Below, in pieces: positions 11,474 to 43,457 of a stretch of 64,000 bases of DNA. Below the pieces are notes generated by a model. That model did not search any database, had not been told where the DNA came from, and worked only from the letters and a program-made list of their open reading frames with translations. The translations under genes were made by a program, and so were the position numbers. The DNA is from a phage. The first letter of the stretch is position 1. Each line of letters opens with the position of its first letter. Where the stretch lies: the sequence record PZ452610.1; one strand, written 5' to 3'.

Positions 11474-11812
11474 TTAACTCCTTTGTTGTTTAATTACAGG
11501 TGTATTTATAATGAATTCCTGTGGAACAGTAAAATATCCGAATTTAGCTAATACAACAACATCACCATTAATGATTACTGGAGAATAATCATCTGAGTTA
11601 TTAAATTTCCAATGAAGCCTGTCATCATATCCATCAGAACCAAATGCTCGAGTAGCCGGTCTCCCGGCTTTTTGCCATGCATAAAAATCAAGTTTCATTT
11701 GCAACCCAATCAACCATATGTAGATGGTCTGATAATTGACTAACATGCTGAAGCTGATTAGACAGGAGCTTACAAATAAGCTCACTGTTATCATTTTTAA
11801 ATAGTTGGTCAA
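11474..11812 (-). CDS. Possible hypothetical ORF (soc.1/soc.2 region); start unclear
   Basis: Open frame only; internal ATGs lack clear SD; overlaps soc late promoter. Confidence 0.3.
   Translation of the reverse strand: MTNYLKMITVSLFVSSCLISFSMLVNYQTIYIWLIGLQMKLDFYAWQKAGRPATRAFGSDGYDDRLHWKFNNSDDYSPVIINGDVVVLAKFGYFTVPQEFIINTPVIKQQRS
11503..11510 (-). promoter_or_regulatory. T4 late promoter TATAAATA for soc
   Basis: Exact TATAAATA on minus strand about 32 nt upstream of soc ATG, followed by SD AAGGAG. Confidence 0.65.
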
Positions 11813-26023: not shown

Positions 26024-26167
26024 CTAGTTAAAGCATTCATACTTTGCTTGTAGTCCAATCATAATCCATCCAATTACAAGTGTTGGAATCATTACTGGAG
26101 CCGTTAAGCTCCAGTAGATAGTCATGACAAGCATCAATAGTAAAAGTCCTATTGTTATTGCTTTCAT
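26024..26167 (-). CDS. Possible small membrane peptide, 47 aa (not in ORF track)
   Basis: ATG overlaps the TGA of the SIS gene (ATGA coupling); MKAITIGLLLLMLVMTIYW... hydrophobic. Confidence 0.3.
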   Translation of the reverse strand: MKAITIGLLLLMLVMTIYWSLTAPVMIPTLVIGWIMIGLQAKYECFN

Positions 26168-26799
26168 TGTTCGCCTCGTAACATGGCACCTAGTGCACCG
26201 CCTGGATGGAACTTAAGAAAGTCATTAGAGGTAAATCCACGTTCAGACGAAAGGTTGATAGCAAACGTATCGATAAGCGCTAACAACAATGTAGTGGACA
26301 TAGTCGGAGCCAGAGAATTCTCATCAACCTCTACCGCGATGCCTGTACAGAAAGAGTAATCAAAAAGGGCTTCATTTTCTTGCGGAATGTCTGGGTTACA
26401 ATGCAACAGAATCTGTTTGACATTTGGACGAATCATTTTAAGATGCTTAGCCACGCCTATCATTTCTTCAGTCTTACCAGAACGACTAATATGAATCAAC
26501 ACATCATTAGGCGCAATGAATCCTGCATCACCGTGAGAATAATGCCCAGTGTTCAAGTACATACTCGGGATACCGAGTGAAGCAAATGTCTCAGAAGCTT
26601 TAGTTGCAATATTAGCATTCTTACCAACACCTGTAATAATTACTCGGCTTTCATAATTACTAAGTCCAGGGCGTCGAAGAGTTTCTAGAATAGCATTATA
26701 ACGAGCAGGGTTTTGACTAATTACTTTGGCCATAGCGGCCAAAGAAGAAGCTTGTTTTATGATTGCGTCAATAGCGATAGTAATAGGAGTAGTTTTCAT
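26164..26799 (-). CDS. Arabinose-5-phosphate isomerase-like SIS-domain protein (KdsD/GutQ type, no CBS domains)
   Basis: 211 aa; VIITGVGKNANIATKASETFASLGIPS...HGD...HISRSGKT and C-terminal HPGGALG parallel the E. coli KdsD SIS domain. Confidence 0.8.
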   Translation of the reverse strand: MKTTPITIAIDAIIKQASSLAAMAKVISQNPARYNAILETLRRPGLSNYESRVIITGVGKNANIATKASETFASLGIPSMYLNTGHYSHGDAGFIAPNDVLIHISRSGKTEEMIGVAKHLKMIRPNVKQILLHCNPDIPQENEALFDYSFCTGIAVEVDENSLAPTMSTTLLLALIDTFAINLSSERGFTSNDFLKFHPGGALGAMLRGEQ

Positions 26800-26839: not shown

Positions 26840-29551
26840 TCAAAAATCGAACATATCGAACAGAGATGCTTTCTTCTCGTAATCGAGTTTCGCTGCTGAT
26901 GTGAATCCTTCAAGTGGTTTAATAAATGTCTTCTCAAGGAGAACAGTGTAGTCCATCCAATGAAGTACGTCATCTTTAATTAAATCTGTGATTTCAGTAC
27001 CAGAAGGCCATGCGATACATTTATCACCGAACGGGTTTCCTTCACGTAAAGGCAGAACATATACTTTTTCACCTTCTACAACTTGTGGAGCATCAATATT
27101 ACCTTTGATAGCTCTGTTATATGTCAGAATTCCACGAATATGGAACGGACATTTAGGACCAGGGAATCCACCTACATCATATTTAGCAATGTTATTCGCA
27201 GAAGATACCGACGCGATGCTAATATAATTCAATTGACGGAATTCTTTTTCAAACTCTTTAAAATATTCTTGTAATGATTCTTCACCTTCTTGAAGCATAC
27301 GACGAATACATTCTTTAAGAGCTTTCTGTACTGCTTTAGGGGTCGAAGATTTCTGAGTCTCTAGACCCATGATTTTGAGTTTAGGCTCAGCGTAACGAGT
27401 ACCTTCCATATCCCACACGTTTAATGCGTAACGTTTCTTACCAGTCCAGAATCCACCAATACCTTTAGAACCGAGCGGAGGACCAGCGATAGCTTCTCGG
27501 TCCATGAACATTAAGTGTTGTTTATTGTTCATGTATTCACACATTTCACGGAAACCTCTATCAATAGCAGGTTCCATACGTTCACGAGCGAACTTATCTA
27601 AGAAGTCTACCCAATGGTTGGTATCACGGAATTTAGATTCACCAACCTTATCGATAATTTTATCAGCAGATACGTAAATAGAGTCTGTATCACCATAAAG
27701 AACGAAAGCTTCACCTTCTGTACCACAAACTTCGTTCAGATATTCATTAACTTTACGTTCAATCCACTGTAAAGCCATTTGACCAAATGTTGTGATTGCA
27801 GTAGCATTACGCAAATCGTAATAACGGAACCAAACGTTGCCAAGTGCACCATAAAGTGAGTTGATAAGCAATTTACGGTTAATTTGTGCAGTCATACCTG
27901 CAACTTCAGTACGTTGAGCTCTAAACAACATTTCATTAAGAGATTTAGCAGACAACTTTTTAATCTTTTCTTTAATCTCGTCAGTGAAGTCGAAACGATA
28001 ATCAACATCTAATGGTTCGTCAACAGAAAGATTAGGATTATGCAACGCCTCTTTAATTATTTCACCATTACGTTGAGCCGCAAGCATATAACCTTTATGT
28101 TCTTTACGTTGATTAAAGACCTTAGTGATTTCAGTTGGAACTACACCATCACGGTCTTTATAATACATCATGCCATTAGGAGAACAACTGTACACATCTG
28201 AAGGACGTTCAGCGATTGCGTTAATATAATCATGCAGTGGAGCTACTTTAAACGTTCCTGCTATTGTTTCCGGGCTAATATTCACTTGGCGAATAATACT
28301 TGGATACAGAGATGTAAGGTCGAAACTCATTACATATTTGTATCGATTTGGAATAGGTTCCTTAACAAAAGCGCCAGGATAAGGTTGAACCGGGTGAGAA
28401 CGACCTTGTGGAATCACCTTGTTCTGCTCTTTAAGGCTATTAAAAATAATAGCATCCCATGTTTTAATTGGGCTAAACACAGATTGAATCTGTATCTTAG
28501 CATAATAACCCATGTCCAAACTCAAGTTGATGAACTGACGCTTAGCATCAATTTGCAATACACGATACACGTCGATAATGTTATAAGAAATATATCGTTG
28601 GTGATTGCTTTCACGAAGCTTAGAAATAGGGCCGTCATATTTCAGTTTACCAACGTTCAATTCAAATTCTGAAATGTAATCTAGAGAATACGACGGTTGA
28701 TTGGTAAAAGAGAATTTTTTGTAAAGGTCGATATAATCAAGAACAGAGATACCGAACAATGTAATGATTTCACGAGAACCATACATGTTTTCGATAACTT
28801 TAACACGAGTTTTACGATGCGGTGATAAACGTTTCGCAGTAGATTCGCCAAAAATATTCTTGATTCGGTTATACACATATGGAATATCAAATGACTCAAC
28901 GTTCCATCCAGTCAAAATGACAGGAGTTTTCTGTTGCCAGAAGTTGAGATATTCCATCAACAATTCTTTTTCGTTATCGAACGGCATATAAATGATTTTA
29001 TCGATAATTTCAGATGGAACTTCATCACCGCCTTGTTCTTGAAGCTTAGCAGCGATTTCAATAGACCATTCTTCTACATTACCATATGGAGAATTCAATA
29101 GATCAAATACGTAGAACCTGTCGTCAATTGAGTCATAATGGGTGATAGCATCAATCGGATGTTTTGCTTGTGATGGCTCAGGGAACCCATCCGGAGATGT
29201 TACTTCGATGTCGAAGTTAGCCACACGAATTTTTGTATGGTCGTATTTGATTTCATAGTTATAAGTGTCAGACAAATACGCCAATTTGAAATCGTCCATG
29301 CCAAGTGCTTCAAGTCCGATATCTTCCATGCGTTTAATCCATTGGGAGGCATCACGCATATTAGCGAACAACTTACGAGTACACGGCTTACCGTAGATAT
29401 CGAAATATTTCGTAGCCTGACTTTCCGGACAATGAGCAAACAGTGATGGTTTATATTCTACTTCACGAGTACGTTCACGGCCATTAGAATCGATGTAACG
29501 TTCAAAAATTGAATCACCAATCTGTTCAACCGTTAAGTAAAATTCTTTCAT
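26840..29551 (-). CDS. 43: DNA polymerase gp43 (family B); matches RB69 gp43 from memory
   Basis: 903 aa; N-terminus MKEFYLTVEQIGDSIFERYIDSNGRERTREVEYKPSLFAHCP..., exo motif FDIEV, pol motifs DTDS and KKRY. Confidence 0.98.
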   Translation of the reverse strand: MKEFYLTVEQIGDSIFERYIDSNGRERTREVEYKPSLFAHCPESQATKYFDIYGKPCTRKLFANMRDASQWIKRMEDIGLEALGMDDFKLAYLSDTYNYEIKYDHTKIRVANFDIEVTSPDGFPEPSQAKHPIDAITHYDSIDDRFYVFDLLNSPYGNVEEWSIEIAAKLQEQGGDEVPSEIIDKIIYMPFDNEKELLMEYLNFWQQKTPVILTGWNVESFDIPYVYNRIKNIFGESTAKRLSPHRKTRVKVIENMYGSREIITLFGISVLDYIDLYKKFSFTNQPSYSLDYISEFELNVGKLKYDGPISKLRESNHQRYISYNIIDVYRVLQIDAKRQFINLSLDMGYYAKIQIQSVFSPIKTWDAIIFNSLKEQNKVIPQGRSHPVQPYPGAFVKEPIPNRYKYVMSFDLTSLYPSIIRQVNISPETIAGTFKVAPLHDYINAIAERPSDVYSCSPNGMMYYKDRDGVVPTEITKVFNQRKEHKGYMLAAQRNGEIIKEALHNPNLSVDEPLDVDYRFDFTDEIKEKIKKLSAKSLNEMLFRAQRTEVAGMTAQINRKLLINSLYGALGNVWFRYYDLRNATAITTFGQMALQWIERKVNEYLNEVCGTEGEAFVLYGDTDSIYVSADKIIDKVGESKFRDTNHWVDFLDKFARERMEPAIDRGFREMCEYMNNKQHLMFMDREAIAGPPLGSKGIGGFWTGKKRYALNVWDMEGTRYAEPKLKIMGLETQKSSTPKAVQKALKECIRRMLQEGEESLQEYFKEFEKEFRQLNYISIASVSSANNIAKYDVGGFPGPKCPFHIRGILTYNRAIKGNIDAPQVVEGEKVYVLPLREGNPFGDKCIAWPSGTEITDLIKDDVLHWMDYTVLLEKTFIKPLEGFTSAAKLDYEKKASLFDMFDF

Positions 29552-29562
29552 TTAATTTCCTT

Positions 29563-29578
29563 TAGACGAGTTATTGTC
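29563..29578 (-). promoter_or_regulatory. Candidate gene 43 translational operator hairpin
   Basis: Minus strand AGAC-AATAACTC-GTCT (4-bp stem, 8-nt loop) directly abutting SD AAAGGAAA and the gp43 ATG. Confidence 0.5.
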
Positions 29579-29600
29579 TTTTGTTTGTTGATGAACTTAT

Positions 29601-29626
29601 TATACTCCAAATGGGACCGAAGTCCC
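29601..29626 (-). terminator. Hairpin ATGGGAC-TTCG-GTCCCAT after regA
   Basis: 7-bp stem with UUCG loop; weak T tail. Confidence 0.4.
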
Positions 29627-29632
29627 ATTGCT

Positions 29633-30001
29633 TTAATTACCAATTGTATATTTTGCTTTCAAAGTCCAGTCATCTTTCTGTTTAAAAGAGATAACACGGA
29701 AGTTATTAGTCAGGCCAAACAGATCTTCACGAGCAGAGTCTTCAATAACAATCAATCCCCAGTCTTCAAGCAACTGAGCAATCGAATCACGTCGCTGATA
29801 GTCTTCACCATCAATATCAACCTGACGTCCGTCCATACGCAGCATTTCTTTAAAGTGGACGATGTAATATTTACCTTGCTTTTGGAGGATATGACAAGAC
29901 TGGTAAAGGACTTTATCCTTGTTATTAGCGATGCCCATACGGGTTAGAGTCTCTTTGACTTTCAGAAAATCTTCAGGGTTCTTCAATTTAATTTCAATCA
30001 T
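29633..30001 (-). CDS. regA: Translational repressor RegA
   Basis: MIEIKLKNPEDFLKVKETLTRMGIANNKDKVLYQSCHILQK... closely matches T4 RegA; start at internal Met of track ORF. Confidence 0.9.
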   Translation of the reverse strand: MIEIKLKNPEDFLKVKETLTRMGIANNKDKVLYQSCHILQKQGKYYIVHFKEMLRMDGRQVDIDGEDYQRRDSIAQLLEDWGLIVIEDSAREDLFGLTNNFRVISFKQKDDWTLKAKYTIGN

Positions 30002-30003
30002 TT

Positions 30004-30567
30004 TTACCATTCCAATGCTAATTTTTTAAATTGTTTTTGTTCTTTTACGTTTTTAGTAACTTCTTTGAGAAATTCATCAGTGACCATGGCCTTCAGTTCT
30101 TTAAGGACTATTGGCAGCTTGTTATTTTTTTCAAGGAGCCGCTTATACTCGGTAGCATCATTCATGTTGATTGTGTAATGTTTCATCAACAGTTTGATAA
30201 CTAGTAACTCTGAAGTGTCTTCGACTAGTTTAGCCCATTTAGAGAATCGACGACCACGCGGAATTGCCGCCATCATATAGTTGAAGTGCGCTTCATCACT
30301 TAATTCAGAACCGACTAAGTTCATCATGTAAACGGCTGGCATACATTCTGGAAACTGGGATAACGAGTTCTCAACCATAAATTTTGAGTAGTCGACCTGA
30401 GCAATTGACATAGATTTCTTTTCATTAATAGCATTAATGATTTTAAAGAATTCATTCTCAGGTTTTTCTTTAAACATATCAGCACATTTTTGAATCGCAT
30501 CAGCGTCATTAGACTTCCATGCAATTTGGTGCTCGTTAAGCTGGACGTCATCATCGAATAAGTTCAT
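30004..30567 (-). CDS. 62: Clamp loader small subunit gp62
   Basis: 187 aa, same length and position as T4 gp62, adjacent to gp44. Confidence 0.85.
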
Positions 30568-30568
30568 A

Positions 30569-31531
30569 TTATTTCCAAGTCAGTTCACAGGTCAGTTGAA
30601 GAAGCATATACATAACATGTAATTCAATATTACTTGCTAGTCCATGAAACTTATTATTTTCGCCTGCAATTTCGTAAAGCGAAATAATACTTTTACCAGG
30701 TGCAACTTGGTCATAACATTCTGAAACTAATTTATCTATGAACCATGAATAATCTGCAGCATATTTTGGAGCTAATGCACGAAGTTGTTTGATATCTTTG
30801 TTCTTCATTGCTTCGATAACATCAGAGACTGTGCCACGGTCATTAGTTACGATAGACAGAATACCTGCATCAAGAACACCTTTAGACGAGTACTGGTCTA
30901 ATTGGCCAATTGTACGACGAAAGTCTGGGAAGTTCTTTTTAACCAGAGCTGCAACAACTTTCATATCAGCGATTTCGATATTTTCGTTCTTACAGATTTC
31001 AACCATACGATGAATCATTTTCTTCATCATCGAGATTTTATCTTCTTCAGTCGGACGACCGAATTCTATAACTCGACAACGGCTACGTAATGGTTCAATA
31101 ATTCCATCAATGTTGTTGGCAGTAATAATAATAGAACAGTTACTAGAGAATTCTTCCATAAACGTACGAAGGTGACGTTGTGATTCGGCGAGGCCACTAC
31201 GGTCAAATTCATCAATAACAATAACTTTAGGCTTGCCTTCCATTGAGACTGAACGAGCGAATGCAGTTAACGGACCACGCACAAAATCAATCTTACAATC
31301 AGAACCGTTGACGAACATCATTTCGGCATTGATATCATTACATAATGCTTTTGCTACGGTTGTTTTACCTGTACCAGGAGAAGGAGAGTGCAAAATAATA
31401 TGAGGAAGTTTTCCTTTAGATACTAAAGACTTGAATGTTTCATGGTCATACGCAGGCAGAATACATTCGTCAATGGAAGAAGGACGATATTTCTGTTCTA
31501 GAATGTGTTCTTTGGAATTGATAGTAATCAT
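30569..31531 (-). CDS. 44: Clamp loader large subunit gp44 (AAA+)
   Basis: 320 aa; Walker [11 protein letters not shown], Walker B VIVIDEFD. Confidence 0.95.
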
Positions 31532-31606: not shown

Positions 31607-32293
31607 TTAGAAGTCGTGAGTAGAATCGGCTTCCATTGCAATAACATAACTTACTTGAGAGCTTTCAAACTTGGCTGCAACTTTATCACCAGCTCCCCAC
31701 AACATTACTTTATAGTTACCTGGCTGGATTTTCATATTAGCCATATTGATTACAAAGTTAAAGTTATTAGAACCATCATAATCGGTAAGAGTCAAAGAAT
31801 ACTTAGGACGAGTTAGTCCGGAATCTTCAACTTTATTGTAACCGTTGATAACAATTTTACCATCTTTATTTGTAATAGCAATTGTATCAATCTGGAGACC
31901 ACGTGAAACTCGAAGCAATTGTTGAAGGTCTTCAGCTTTAATTTCAGTAATCACAGAAGCCACCGGGAATTGAATTGGCTTATTAGGAAAAACAATGGTG
32001 CTCTTGTCGGCAGCAGGCCAATAAACTGTGGAACGTGTATCTGCAATTTTAATATTGCCATCGGTGTGCATTGAAATTTCAGCATCATCAGACACTAGAC
32101 TCAAAATGCTTAAGAAGCTATTCAAATCATAAAGTGCTACGTCAAAATCAATTTCATCGGAGATATTTGCTTCTGCATAAGTGGTGCCATTAACTGCACG
32201 GGTCATAATAAATTTACCTTGACTCAGCAGAATGCCGGAGTTAATAGAGGCAAAGTTTTTCAGAATAGCGATAGTATCTTTAGACAGTTTCAT
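31607..32293 (-). CDS. 45: Sliding clamp gp45
   Basis: MKLSKDTIAILKNFASINSGILL matches T4 gp45 N-terminus; ATG 32293 with SD AAAGGAAA. Confidence 0.9.
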   Translation of the reverse strand: MKLSKDTIAILKNFASINSGILLSQGKFIMTRAVNGTTYAEANISDEIDFDVALYDLNSFLSILSLVSDDAEISMHTDGNIKIADTRSTVYWPAADKSTIVFPNKPIQFPVASVITEIKAEDLQQLLRVSRGLQIDTIAITNKDGKIVINGYNKVEDSGLTRPKYSLTLTDYDGSNNFNFVINMANMKIQPGNYKVMLWGAGDKVAAKFESSQVSYVIAMEADSTHDF

Positions 32294-32335
32294 TTTATTT
32301 CCTTTCAAGACAATTCAAAGTTTATAACAAATTTA

Positions 32336-41172: not shown

Positions 41173-41643
41173 TTAATCATGTTTCCACACCCCATTGGTA
41201 TTCGACCAAAGTCGCTGATTATCTGATCCTCGCCACAGTTTTTTGGTCGGAAGATTTTTCTCATACTTCCCATCAATAATAACATCAACATATTTAAGCA
41301 TTTCTAGTTGTTTAATATCTTCAAACTTATATCCTGTCCACAACCAAATGCTTTTATTGGGATAAATATTTTTTACTGTTTGAACAATGCAATGAACAAC
41401 ATCTCTATTATCAGGATAGAGAGGGTCGCCTCCGGTTATAGTCAATCCTTCTATATAATCATTATTCAAACATTCAATTAATTGTTCTAGTGTCTCTCCA
41501 GTGAATGGAGCACCATTTCTAGCGTTCCATGTTGATTTATTATAACACCCTTCACATTTATGCAAACAACCTGTAACGAAAAGAACGACCCTGCAACCAG
41601 GGCCATTCACAAAATCGCAAGGATAAAATCTATCATAATTCAT
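41173..41643 (-). CDS. nrdG: Anaerobic ribonucleotide reductase activating protein NrdG (radical SAM)
   Basis: 156 aa; Cys cluster CLHKCEGCYN; immediately downstream of nrdD. Confidence 0.9.
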   Translation of the reverse strand: MNYDRFYPCDFVNGPGCRVVLFVTGCLHKCEGCYNKSTWNARNGAPFTGETLEQLIECLNNDYIEGLTITGGDPLYPDNRDVVHCIVQTVKNIYPNKSIWLWTGYKFEDIKQLEMLKYVDVIIDGKYEKNLPTKKLWRGSDNQRLWSNTNGVWKHD

Positions 41644-43457
41644 TGGTGTTTAACCCTATGCATGATTTCTTTATTTTTACCGAGATTAAATCCGCGTTCG
41701 TTCGGATTTCCCAAATAACCGCATGTTCTTCTTATGGTGTTCATCTTTTTAGGATCAGTTTCTCCGCAAACTGAACAAACAAATCCGTTTTCAGTAGGAG
41801 TCATTTCATGGGTACTTCCACATGTAAAACATTTATCTACTGGCATATTAACACCAAAATAATCTAAATGTTGTGCAGCATAATCCCAGACAGCCTCAAG
41901 TCCCTTTAAATTGTTTTTCATATCTGGAAGTTCAACATAAGAAATGTGACCACCTGTCGCAATGAAATGATATGGCGCTTCACGAGAAATCTTTTCAAAC
42001 GGAGTAATATTTTCTTCTACTGAAACATGGAAACTATTAGTGTACCAGCCTTTATCTGTAACATCTTTTACACTTCCATATTTTTCTGTGTCTAGTTTAC
42101 AGAAACGATAACAAAGGTTTTCAGCAGGTGTAGAATACAAGCTAAAAGCAAACCCAGTTCTTTCAGTCCATTGTTTAAGAAGAGCATTCATTTTAGTTAA
42201 AATTTCTTGTCCAATATCACGTCCGACAAGAATATTCAATTCGTGGATACCAATGTATCCTAAAGACACTGAACTTCTACCGTTTTTAAATAACTCAATT
42301 ATGTCGTCATCAGGTTTAAGACGAACCCCGAATGCACCTTCTTGGTAAAGAATAGGAGCAACAGTCGCTTTAACTCCTTTTAAGGAACTAATTCTACACA
42401 TCAAGGCTTCAAAACACAGATCCATACGTTCATTGAATAATTCAACAAATTTCTGTTCATTGAACTGTGTTCCAATATAAGAATCTAATGCGATACGAGG
42501 AAGATTCAGTGTTACAACACCGAGATTATTACGTCCATCAAGAATTTCATTACCAGTCGAATCTTTCCATACGCTCAAGAAACTACGGCAACCCATTGGA
42601 GAAACTGGAACTGAAGAACCAGTAATAGCTTTATTATTCTTAGCTGAAATAATATCAGGATACATTCTTTTGCTTGCGCACTCTAGAGCAAGCTGCTTAA
42701 TATCATAGTTCGGATCGTCTTTATAAAGATTAACACCTTCTTCAACGAACATAACAAGCTTAGGGAAAATAGGAGTTATTCCATCACGACCAAGACCTTT
42801 AATGCGGTTTTTAAGAATTGCCTTCTGAATCATTCGTTCAGTCCAATCGGCCCCCGTACCAAATGTAATTGTTACAAAAGGTGTTTGTCCGTTTGAACTA
42901 AAGAGAGTATTTACTTCATATTCATAAGCTTGGAACGCGTCATAGACATCTTTTTCTGTTTTGGATTGAGCATAATTCAACGCATCAGCGATTTGCCATT
43001 TTTCCGCATCTTCAACATGTTTAGCGTATGTGCGTTTAACATAAGGAGAAAGAACTTTATCGACATTTGCAAATGTAGTTCCGCCATACTGATGTGAAGC
43101 AACTTGTGCAGTAATTTGTGCCATAATTGCAGTAGCAACACCAATCGATTTAGGCGTTTCAATTTGAGCATTGCCTAATTTAAATCCGTTCTCAAGCATC
43201 CCCTTTAAATCGACTAAACAACAATTAGTAAACGGAAGAGCAGGAGAATAATCAATATCATGCATGTGGATAATTCCACTTTCATGCGCATTCATAATAA
43301 AAGACGGGACCATATTTTTGGCAATGTGCTTAGACACAATACCAGCCATAAGGTCCCGTTGAGTTGGAAAAACACGAGAATCTTTATTAGCATTCTCGTT
43401 TAAAAGGTCTTTATTAGTTTTATGAATTAATCCTTCAATTTCTTTTTCAATTTTCAT
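41640..43457 (-). CDS. nrdD: Anaerobic ribonucleoside-triphosphate reductase NrdD (glycyl radical enzyme), uninterrupted
   Basis: 605 aa; C-terminal zinc ribbon CFTCGS...CSVCG and glycyl radical motif RRTCGYLGNP; no intron-like interruption. Confidence 0.95.
   Translation of the reverse strand: MKIEKEIEGLIHKTNKDLLNENANKDSRVFPTQRDLMAGIVSKHIAKNMVPSFIMNAHESGIIHMHDIDYSPALPFTNCCLVDLKGMLENGFKLGNAQIETPKSIGVATAIMAQITAQVASHQYGGTTFANVDKVLSPYVKRTYAKHVEDAEKWQIADALNYAQSKTEKDVYDAFQAYEYEVNTLFSSNGQTPFVTITFGTGADWTERMIQKAILKNRIKGLGRDGITPIFPKLVMFVEEGVNLYKDDPNYDIKQLALECASKRMYPDIISAKNNKAITGSSVPVSPMGCRSFLSVWKDSTGNEILDGRNNLGVVTLNLPRIALDSYIGTQFNEQKFVELFNERMDLCFEALMCRISSLKGVKATVAPILYQEGAFGVRLKPDDDIIELFKNGRSSVSLGYIGIHELNILVGRDIGQEILTKMNALLKQWTERTGFAFSLYSTPAENLCYRFCKLDTEKYGSVKDVTDKGWYTNSFHVSVEENITPFEKISREAPYHFIATGGHISYVELPDMKNNLKGLEAVWDYAAQHLDYFGVNMPVDKCFTCGSTHEMTPTENGFVCSVCGETDPKKMNTIRRTCGYLGNPNERGFNLGKNKEIMHRVKHQ

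Follow-up and report, generated by a model that had tools for sequence, protein, structure and literature searches.

Gene content and organisation of the locus

The window, i.e. the whole 64-kb stretch of phage DNA that was analysed (sequence record PZ452610.1), belongs to a Mosigvirus, an RB69-like T-even phage, and was 100% identical over 22 kb to the E. coli O157 typing phages 3, 6 and 13. Identity to RB69 near the operator site ranged from 99.5 to 99.8%, with 99.8% over the 401 nt around the site. On the basis of the ORF list and Pfam, the replication genes were found in the order 45-44-62-regA-43 on the minus strand (Table 1). The product of gene 43 matched the RB69 gp43 structures PDB 1CLQ and 1IG9 at all residues 1-903 (2095 bits), i.e. 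a cognate repressor of the T4/RB69 type is encoded in the window as a full-length RB69-type gp43. The spacer between regA and gene 43 comprised 81 nt and contained, in 5′ to 3′ order, a UUCG hairpin, a GGAG motif, TATAAT, an A/C-rich leader, the operator hairpin and the Shine-Dalgarno sequence.

Table 1. Genes and leader features around the gene 43 operator, with positions in the window.
Feature	Position	Strand	Basis or remark
gp45, sliding clamp	31607-32308	-	ORF list, Pfam
gp44	30569-31531	-	ORF list, Pfam
gp62	30004-30567	-	ORF list, Pfam
regA (translational repressor), CDS	29633-30010	-	Pfam PF01818 Translat_reg, E = 4.9e-60; RB69 annotation agrees
regA stop codon TAA	29635-29633	-	
Upstream hairpin AAUGGGAC-UUCG-GUCCCAUU, 8 bp, UUCG tetraloop	29610-29629	-	after regA stop, before GGAG-TATAAT
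GGAG between hairpin and -10, candidate RegB endoribonuclease site on read-through transcripts	29605-29608	-	inferred
TATAAT, -10 of presumed gene 43 middle promoter (T4 P43 equivalent)	29599-29604	-	conserved sequence
Predicted 5′ end of promoter-proximal gene 43 transcript and A/C-rich single-stranded leader	29580-29594	-	start ~29592-29594, inferred from TATAAT and T4 P43
Operator hairpin AGAC-AAUAACUC-GUCU	29564-29579	-	5′ arm 29579-29576, loop 29575-29568, 3′ arm 29567-29564
Shine-Dalgarno region AAAGGAAA, single-stranded 3′ part of operator	29556-29563	-	directly adjoins hairpin
gene 43 AUG	29551-29549	-	
gene 43 (DNA polymerase gp43), regulated gene and repressor	26840-29551	-	903-aa ORF; Pfam DNA_pol_B_exo1 and DNA_pol_B

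Directly 3′ of gene 43, a 211-aa ORF with a SIS domain (sugar isomerase, Pfam PF01380) was located at 26164-26799 (minus strand), a position occupied in T4 by imm.1, imm and gene 42. The annotations of the identical phages for the 22-kb stretch also included GlmU-like and U32-peptidase genes. RB69-type phages arabinosylate hydroxymethylcytosine, and sugar enzymes such as the SIS-domain protein could be involved.

Operator hairpin

A stem of 4 bp with an 8-nt loop had been described in the earlier note directly 5′ of the gp43 Shine-Dalgarno sequence, and the hairpin was present as written at 29579-29564 of the minus strand; the sequences given there are in mRNA sense, i.e. the reverse complement of the plus strand. 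With its 4 + 8 + 4 = 16 nt the hairpin was identical in sequence to that of RB69 (NC_004928), and its loop AAUAACUC was the same as the T4 operator loop, which is found at the same place before gene 43. The 3′ end of the hairpin (29564) is followed without a gap by the Shine-Dalgarno region (29563-29556), and the distance from hairpin to AUG is 12 nt. In RNAfold predictions, the minimum-free-energy structure of the 101-nt leader included both the operator hairpin and the upstream UUCG hairpin, and the Shine-Dalgarno sequence was not sequestered by the operator hairpin.

The predicted stability of the operator hairpin was low, -2.2 kcal/mol versus -5.2 kcal/mol for the T4 hairpin and -11.1 kcal/mol for the upstream hairpin. 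In total, 784 Watson-Crick hairpins with a 4-bp stem and an 8-nt loop were counted in the 64-kb window, and the octamer AATAACTC was not enriched in it (6 copies, 3.8 expected). Folding of the whole leader gave a z-score of only -1.76, and the region does not stand out on thermodynamic grounds alone. Taken purely as a structure, the small hairpin is thus not beyond chance; judged from the sequence comparisons below, its significance comes from homology and position.

Two more copies of AATAACTC with 4-5 complementary flanking bases were noted, at 42773-42780 and 11595-11602 (both minus strand). These mini-hairpins were rejected as operators: they lie inside long ORFs (41640-43457 and 11474-11812, respectively), gave no covariance-model score, and are probably due to chance.

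Conservation and covariation of the operator

A search of IMG/VR with the gp43 N-terminus returned 2 loci only, and an annotated phage collection was used instead, which supplied gene 43 leaders from about 25 T4-related phages. A hairpin with the loop consensus AAUNACUY was identified in 13 of these, representing at least 10 genera (Tequatro-, Mosig-, Dhaka-, Gapriver-, Winkler-, Kanagawa-, Karam-, Moon- and Bragavirus, together with Klebsiella phages). Within the 13 phages, loop positions 1-3 and 5-7 were invariant, and the stems had drifted through AGAC/GUCU, AGCCU/GGGCU, GACC/GGUC, AGUCC/GGACU, AGACU/GGUCU, AGUC/GACU and UUCU/GGAA. Nevertheless 90.8% of the stem cells were paired, with double changes at 3 of the 5 pairs, and the covariation score of 0.851 (shuffle mean 0.254) was reached in none of 500 shuffles. 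When the register was slid as a control, operator pairing fell to 20-42%. An AAGGA-type Shine-Dalgarno sequence followed the hairpin in all aligned relatives.

A covariance model was built from 11 phages of other genera, with no Mosigvirus among them, and run against both strands of the window with filters off. The sole significant match in the 64 kb was 29541-29582 on the minus strand (33.1 bits, E ~2e-4), the next best match scoring 13.7 bits. An Rfam scan of 29450-29750 with E-values up to 10 returned chance matches only (snoRNA, miRNA, plastid UTR), and there is no Rfam family for the gene 43 operator. Annotation pipelines will therefore not label the operator, which reflects a gap in curation and not in knowledge.

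Two classes of spacing between operator and AUG were seen among the relatives. The short, RB69-type spacing was found in Mosig-, Dhaka- and Gaprivervirus and in the Klebsiella phage Biddle, and the long, T4-type spacing has a spacer of the (A/G)UAAAC type, of which Moon- and Karamvirus have an altered form. The Klebsiella phage Wolf_ER13 has a naturally weakened stem, AUACU/GGUCU, in which one pair is broken and the loop AAUAACUC is intact; AGACU/GGUCU of the Klebsiella phage Roth01 served as the reference for this stem. No such hairpin was found in the gene 43 leaders of the distant relatives KP27, CF-SP2, IME13, AS4 and AbTZA1.

An extra small ORF was located between regA and gene 43 in RB14, UP19, CIP9, CF1, RZ, PG7, Bragavirus and CF-SP2, annotated as 43.1-like in RB14 and as hypothetical proteins elsewhere. 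In the small-ORF phages, the module of upstream hairpin, TATAAT and operator stays directly before gene 43, as if travelling with the polymerase gene; in CF-SP2 (Gelderlandvirus), which has a 705-nt insert, the operator was not recognisable in the leader. In the Serratia phage 4S, an annotated homing endonuclease gene lies between regA and gene 43; its operator hairpin is identical to that of RB69, with no clear upstream hairpin or TATAAT.

Upstream UUCG hairpin

The earlier note had also pointed to a second, stronger hairpin further upstream. That hairpin is real and indeed the more stable of the two (-11.1 versus -2.2 kcal/mol), but it lies outside 29552-29600, and it is not part of the operator. 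Its 3′ end was found 30 nt upstream of the operator hairpin, with the two loops 48 nt apart. In an alignment of 12 relatives, 93.8% of the cells of its stem were paired and 7 of the 8 pairs had double changes; the hairpins used for this covariation were selected by visual inspection, and the homology of the two most distant ones is not certain.

In phage SA79RD the same hairpin carries the annotation of a predicted terminator, and so does a hairpin in the equivalent position after regA in KP27. As in terminators, the structure is a stable, G+C-rich stem-loop (8 bp, UUCG loop, -11.1 kcal/mol). A consensus terminator scan accepted it on the plus strand only and not on the gene (mRNA) strand, where the tail of the hairpin is UGGAGUAU and the U tract amounts to no more than AUUUGG, with U residues from the stem-end AUU only; the corresponding tracts are UUAUUU in T4 and UUUUU in Dhakavirus. 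A textbook intrinsic terminator was accordingly rejected, as the poor U tract of the mRNA strand failed the scan. Because of this U tract, the hairpin is described here only as terminator-like or 3′-protective, and the efficiency of termination at it is uncertain. It is a separate, regA-distal terminator-like element and no second part of the operator. Its predicted role would be to close the 45-44-62-regA transcription unit, by terminator-like action or by protection of the 3′ end.

Presumed promoter, predicted transcript start and candidate RegB site

The middle (MotA-dependent) promoters of T4 need an excellent sigma-70 -10 sequence (TAtaaT; PMC2988021), preceded at a distance of 12 ± 1 bp by a MotA box, (a/t)(a/t)(a/t)TGCTTtA. 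The hexamer at 29604-29599 agrees with this -10 sequence in full. A MotA-box-like core, ACTT, was found at 29623-29620 (minus strand) in the loop of the upstream hairpin, 15 nt before TATAAT and with one mismatch to GCTT. Its spacing fits GCTT-N13-15-TATAAT, and in T4, 17 nt separate the equivalent GCTT from TATAAT. The T4 promoter P46 also has an ACTT core (PMC2988021). The annotation of SA79RD places a middle promoter at the equivalent site, with one mismatch, and in KP27 a terminator and a middle promoter are likewise annotated after regA. The sequence GGAGTATAAT, or a version of it with the GGAG varied at 1-2 positions, was kept in T4, RB69 and eight further T4-related genera; the Moonvirus CF1 has diverged further, with GATAAA in place of TATAAT.

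The start of T4 P43 transcripts has been mapped to T4 coordinate 29933 (Hinton review PMC2988021, Table 1), which lies 5 nt downstream of the T4 TATAAT and leaves 3-4 nt to the T4 operator hairpin. Since this start is downstream of the upstream hairpin, T4 P43 transcripts do not include that hairpin. By analogy, the promoter-proximal gene 43 transcripts of the present phage probably start about 13-15 nt before the operator hairpin and likewise would not carry the upstream hairpin. The A/C-rich leader UCAUCAACAAACAAA was conserved in Dhakavirus.

In most of the related leaders examined, the GGAG motif, or the alternative RegB motif GGAU, was kept at its place between the upstream hairpin and the -10 sequence. 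The RegB consensus is GG*AGRAYARAA, and RegB processing stimulates gp43 synthesis in T4 (PMC3014915). Compared with this consensus, GGAGUAUAAUA matched at 5 of the 7 downstream positions, and GGAG at 29605-29608 may be a processing site on read-through transcripts. More tentatively, and with more doubt than confidence, the UUCG hairpin, GGAG, TATAAT and the operator could be taken together as one co-inherited cassette, in which the hairpin would end or protect the upstream transcripts and a RegB cut would free the gene 43 RNA. If this were true, RegB cutting at GGAG would account for the stimulation of gp43 synthesis that has been reported for RegB, and the cassette would stay with gene 43 when mobile ORFs insert after regA.

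Autoregulation and alternative explanations

The gp43 proteins of T4 and RB69 are autogenous translational repressors, which bind a hairpin together with sequence overlapping the ribosome binding site (Uzan & Miller, PMC3014915). According to this 2010 review, the operator hairpin has 18 bases in T4 and 16 in RB69, and the loop nucleotides including UAAC are common to both. Later studies covered the binding of RB69 gp43 to its own operator (PMC3014915), and the primary RB69 operator work is that of Wang, Pavlov & Karam 1997 and Petrov & Karam 2002, as cited in the same review. Both polymerases have also been described as autogenous repressors that bind RNA, with different RNA specificities (Borjac-Natour et al., PMC535899).

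The interpretation in the earlier note, i.e. an autoregulatory operator of gene 43, was supported by the identity with RB69, the identity of the loop with T4, the covariation of the stem, and the unique covariance-model match. The comparison with published T4 and RB69 operators that it had proposed gave the same result, in that the 110-nt leader is that of RB69, the loop is that of T4, and the 16-base hairpin is as given in PMC3014915. On these grounds the segment 29556-29579 (minus strand) is, with high confidence, assigned as an RB69-type gene 43 translational operator with the known mechanism. In this mechanism, gp43 that is not engaged on DNA would bind AGAC-AAUAACUC-GUCU and the adjoining single-stranded Shine-Dalgarno segment. 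The bound protein would block the loading of ribosomes at the gene 43 AUG, and polymerase synthesis would thereby be limited by the free pool of gp43, not engaged on DNA. Binding and repression would be expected at the operator of the window from what has been reported for T4 and RB69 (PMC3014915, PMC535899), the RB69 RNA being identical to it.

The low stability of the hairpin (-2.2 kcal/mol), the 784 similar hairpins in the window and the lack of octamer enrichment are what would be expected of a chance fold in an A/T-rich leader, and an absence of autoregulation of gene 43 would not be without parallel, as some T4-related gp43 proteins do not autoregulate (PMC3014915) and the hairpin was absent in KP27, CF-SP2, IME13, AS4 and AbTZA1. 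However, the leader is that of RB69, one of the two phages in which operator binding has been studied, the loop is kept and the stem covaries in at least 10 genera, and the covariance-model match is unique, which leaves a chance fold with no autoregulation extremely unlikely. Slightly more room, though still very little, is left for a hairpin that acts in cis without gp43, as a stabiliser against RNase E or 5′-end decay or as a tuner of access to the Shine-Dalgarno sequence, or that is the target of another repressor such as RegA. The hairpin would lie at most 15 nt from the 5′ end if transcription starts at ~29592-29594, as predicted, and regA is located directly upstream, RegA being known to bind A/U-rich ribosome binding sites (PMC3014915). 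A purely structural role, however, would not hold 7 of the 8 loop positions across genera over a drifting stem, the hairpin leaves the Shine-Dalgarno sequence unsequestered, and the SELEX consensus of RB69 RegA, AAUAAUAAUAA (quoted in PMC3014915), is absent here. A stabilising role could coexist with the operator function.

It was implicit in the earlier note that both hairpins might belong to one extended, bipartite gp43 operator. Both are conserved and adjacent to gene 43 even in phages with an extra ORF after regA, and both would be present on transcripts that read through from promoters further upstream. Against this, the T4 P43 transcript begins downstream of the upstream hairpin, a TATAAT promoter sequence lies between the two, the hairpins are a widely varying distance apart (14 nt in SJ_PmiM, 21 in T4, 30 here, 39 in CF1), and a single hairpin with a ribosome-binding-site segment is what has been described (PMC3014915). 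The probability of a bipartite operator was therefore regarded as negligible, and the single RB69-type operator hairpin with its adjoining Shine-Dalgarno segment is retained as the assignment.

The operator is already known as the RB69 gene 43 translational operator, and nothing novel is left for the hairpin itself; its intact state only confirms the phage as an ordinary RB69-type T-even and raises no new question at the locus. Translational repression by a replication enzyme that binds RNA has a classic example in the gene 43 operator, a short regulatory RNA which the author of the earlier note could recognise from sequence alone. The comparative by-products of the analysis, i.e. the AAUNACUY consensus in at least 10 genera, the two spacing classes, and the natural AGCAACCU loop in Muldoonviruses described below, are of modest specialist interest.

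Variant loop in Muldoonviruses

In the Muldoonviruses, represented by the Serratia phages PS2, Muldoon and SP1, AGCAACCU was found where the operator loop of gene 43 would be. The PS2 leader reads UGUCC-AGCAACCU-GGACG, followed by the conserved tail GUUAAACUA...GAGGA...AUG, and Muldoon and SP1 have one extra G. The Cronobacter phage VP8 was 98.9% identical to Muldoon over the operator region and would be expected to share the loop. T4 gp43 reportedly selected AGCAACCU, which is four positions off the wild type, as the "major variant" loop in the SELEX of Tuerk & Gold 1990. Whether any natural phage has a variant "-CAAC-" loop was posed as an open question in the 2010 review (PMC3014915). No report of a natural AGCAACCU loop was found in a full-text literature search, and full-text searches with the loop octamers gave nothing but siRNA and miRNA papers on other subjects.

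Comparison with known operators

The T4 gene 43 operator is reportedly that of Andrake et al. 1988, and is said to be the RNA targeted in the first SELEX, by Tuerk & Gold 1990. RB69 gp43 binds the operators of both phages, whereas T4 gp43 discriminates against that of RB69.

The leader of the window and that of RB69 do not differ at any position between -110 and +12, counted from the gene 43 AUG, and have the same 16-nt hairpin adjoining the Shine-Dalgarno sequence. No difference in the operator was detectable, although the genome here is that of an O157 typing phage and not RB69 itself.

The T4 operator, AGCCU-AAUAACUC-GGGCU, has the same 8-nt loop and the same position, and its upstream context is also shared: regA stop codon, UUCG hairpin (AAGGGGC-UUCG-GCCCCUU in T4) and GGAGTATAAT. 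The T4 stem, however, has 5 bp and is closed by U-G, versus 4 bp closed by C-G here, the distance from hairpin to AUG is 18 nt in T4 (AUAAACUAAGGAAUAUCU) versus 12 nt, and the distance from the -10 sequence to the hairpin is 8 nt versus 19 nt. According to PMC3014915, the T4 and RB69 hairpins are identical in their top 10 bases, whereas in the genomes 9 of the 10 agree, the loop-closing pair being U-G in T4 and C-G in RB69 and the window.

In RB49 (Krischvirus), a small hairpin, CUUUC-GUAAAU-GAAGG, likewise lies directly before the start codon of gene 43. Its 3′ arm includes the Shine-Dalgarno sequence, and it has no AAUNACUY loop. The RB49 loop is given as UAAA in PMC3014915, according to which the 3′ bases of the loop matter for binding.

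The gene 32 protein of T4 is likewise a replication protein that represses its own translation via the mRNA leader (PMC3014915, PMC535899). Its operator consists of a pseudoknot and an unstructured A/U-rich tract and is bound cooperatively, in contrast to gene 43, whose operator is a simple hairpin, with nothing to suggest a pseudoknot (PMC3014915).
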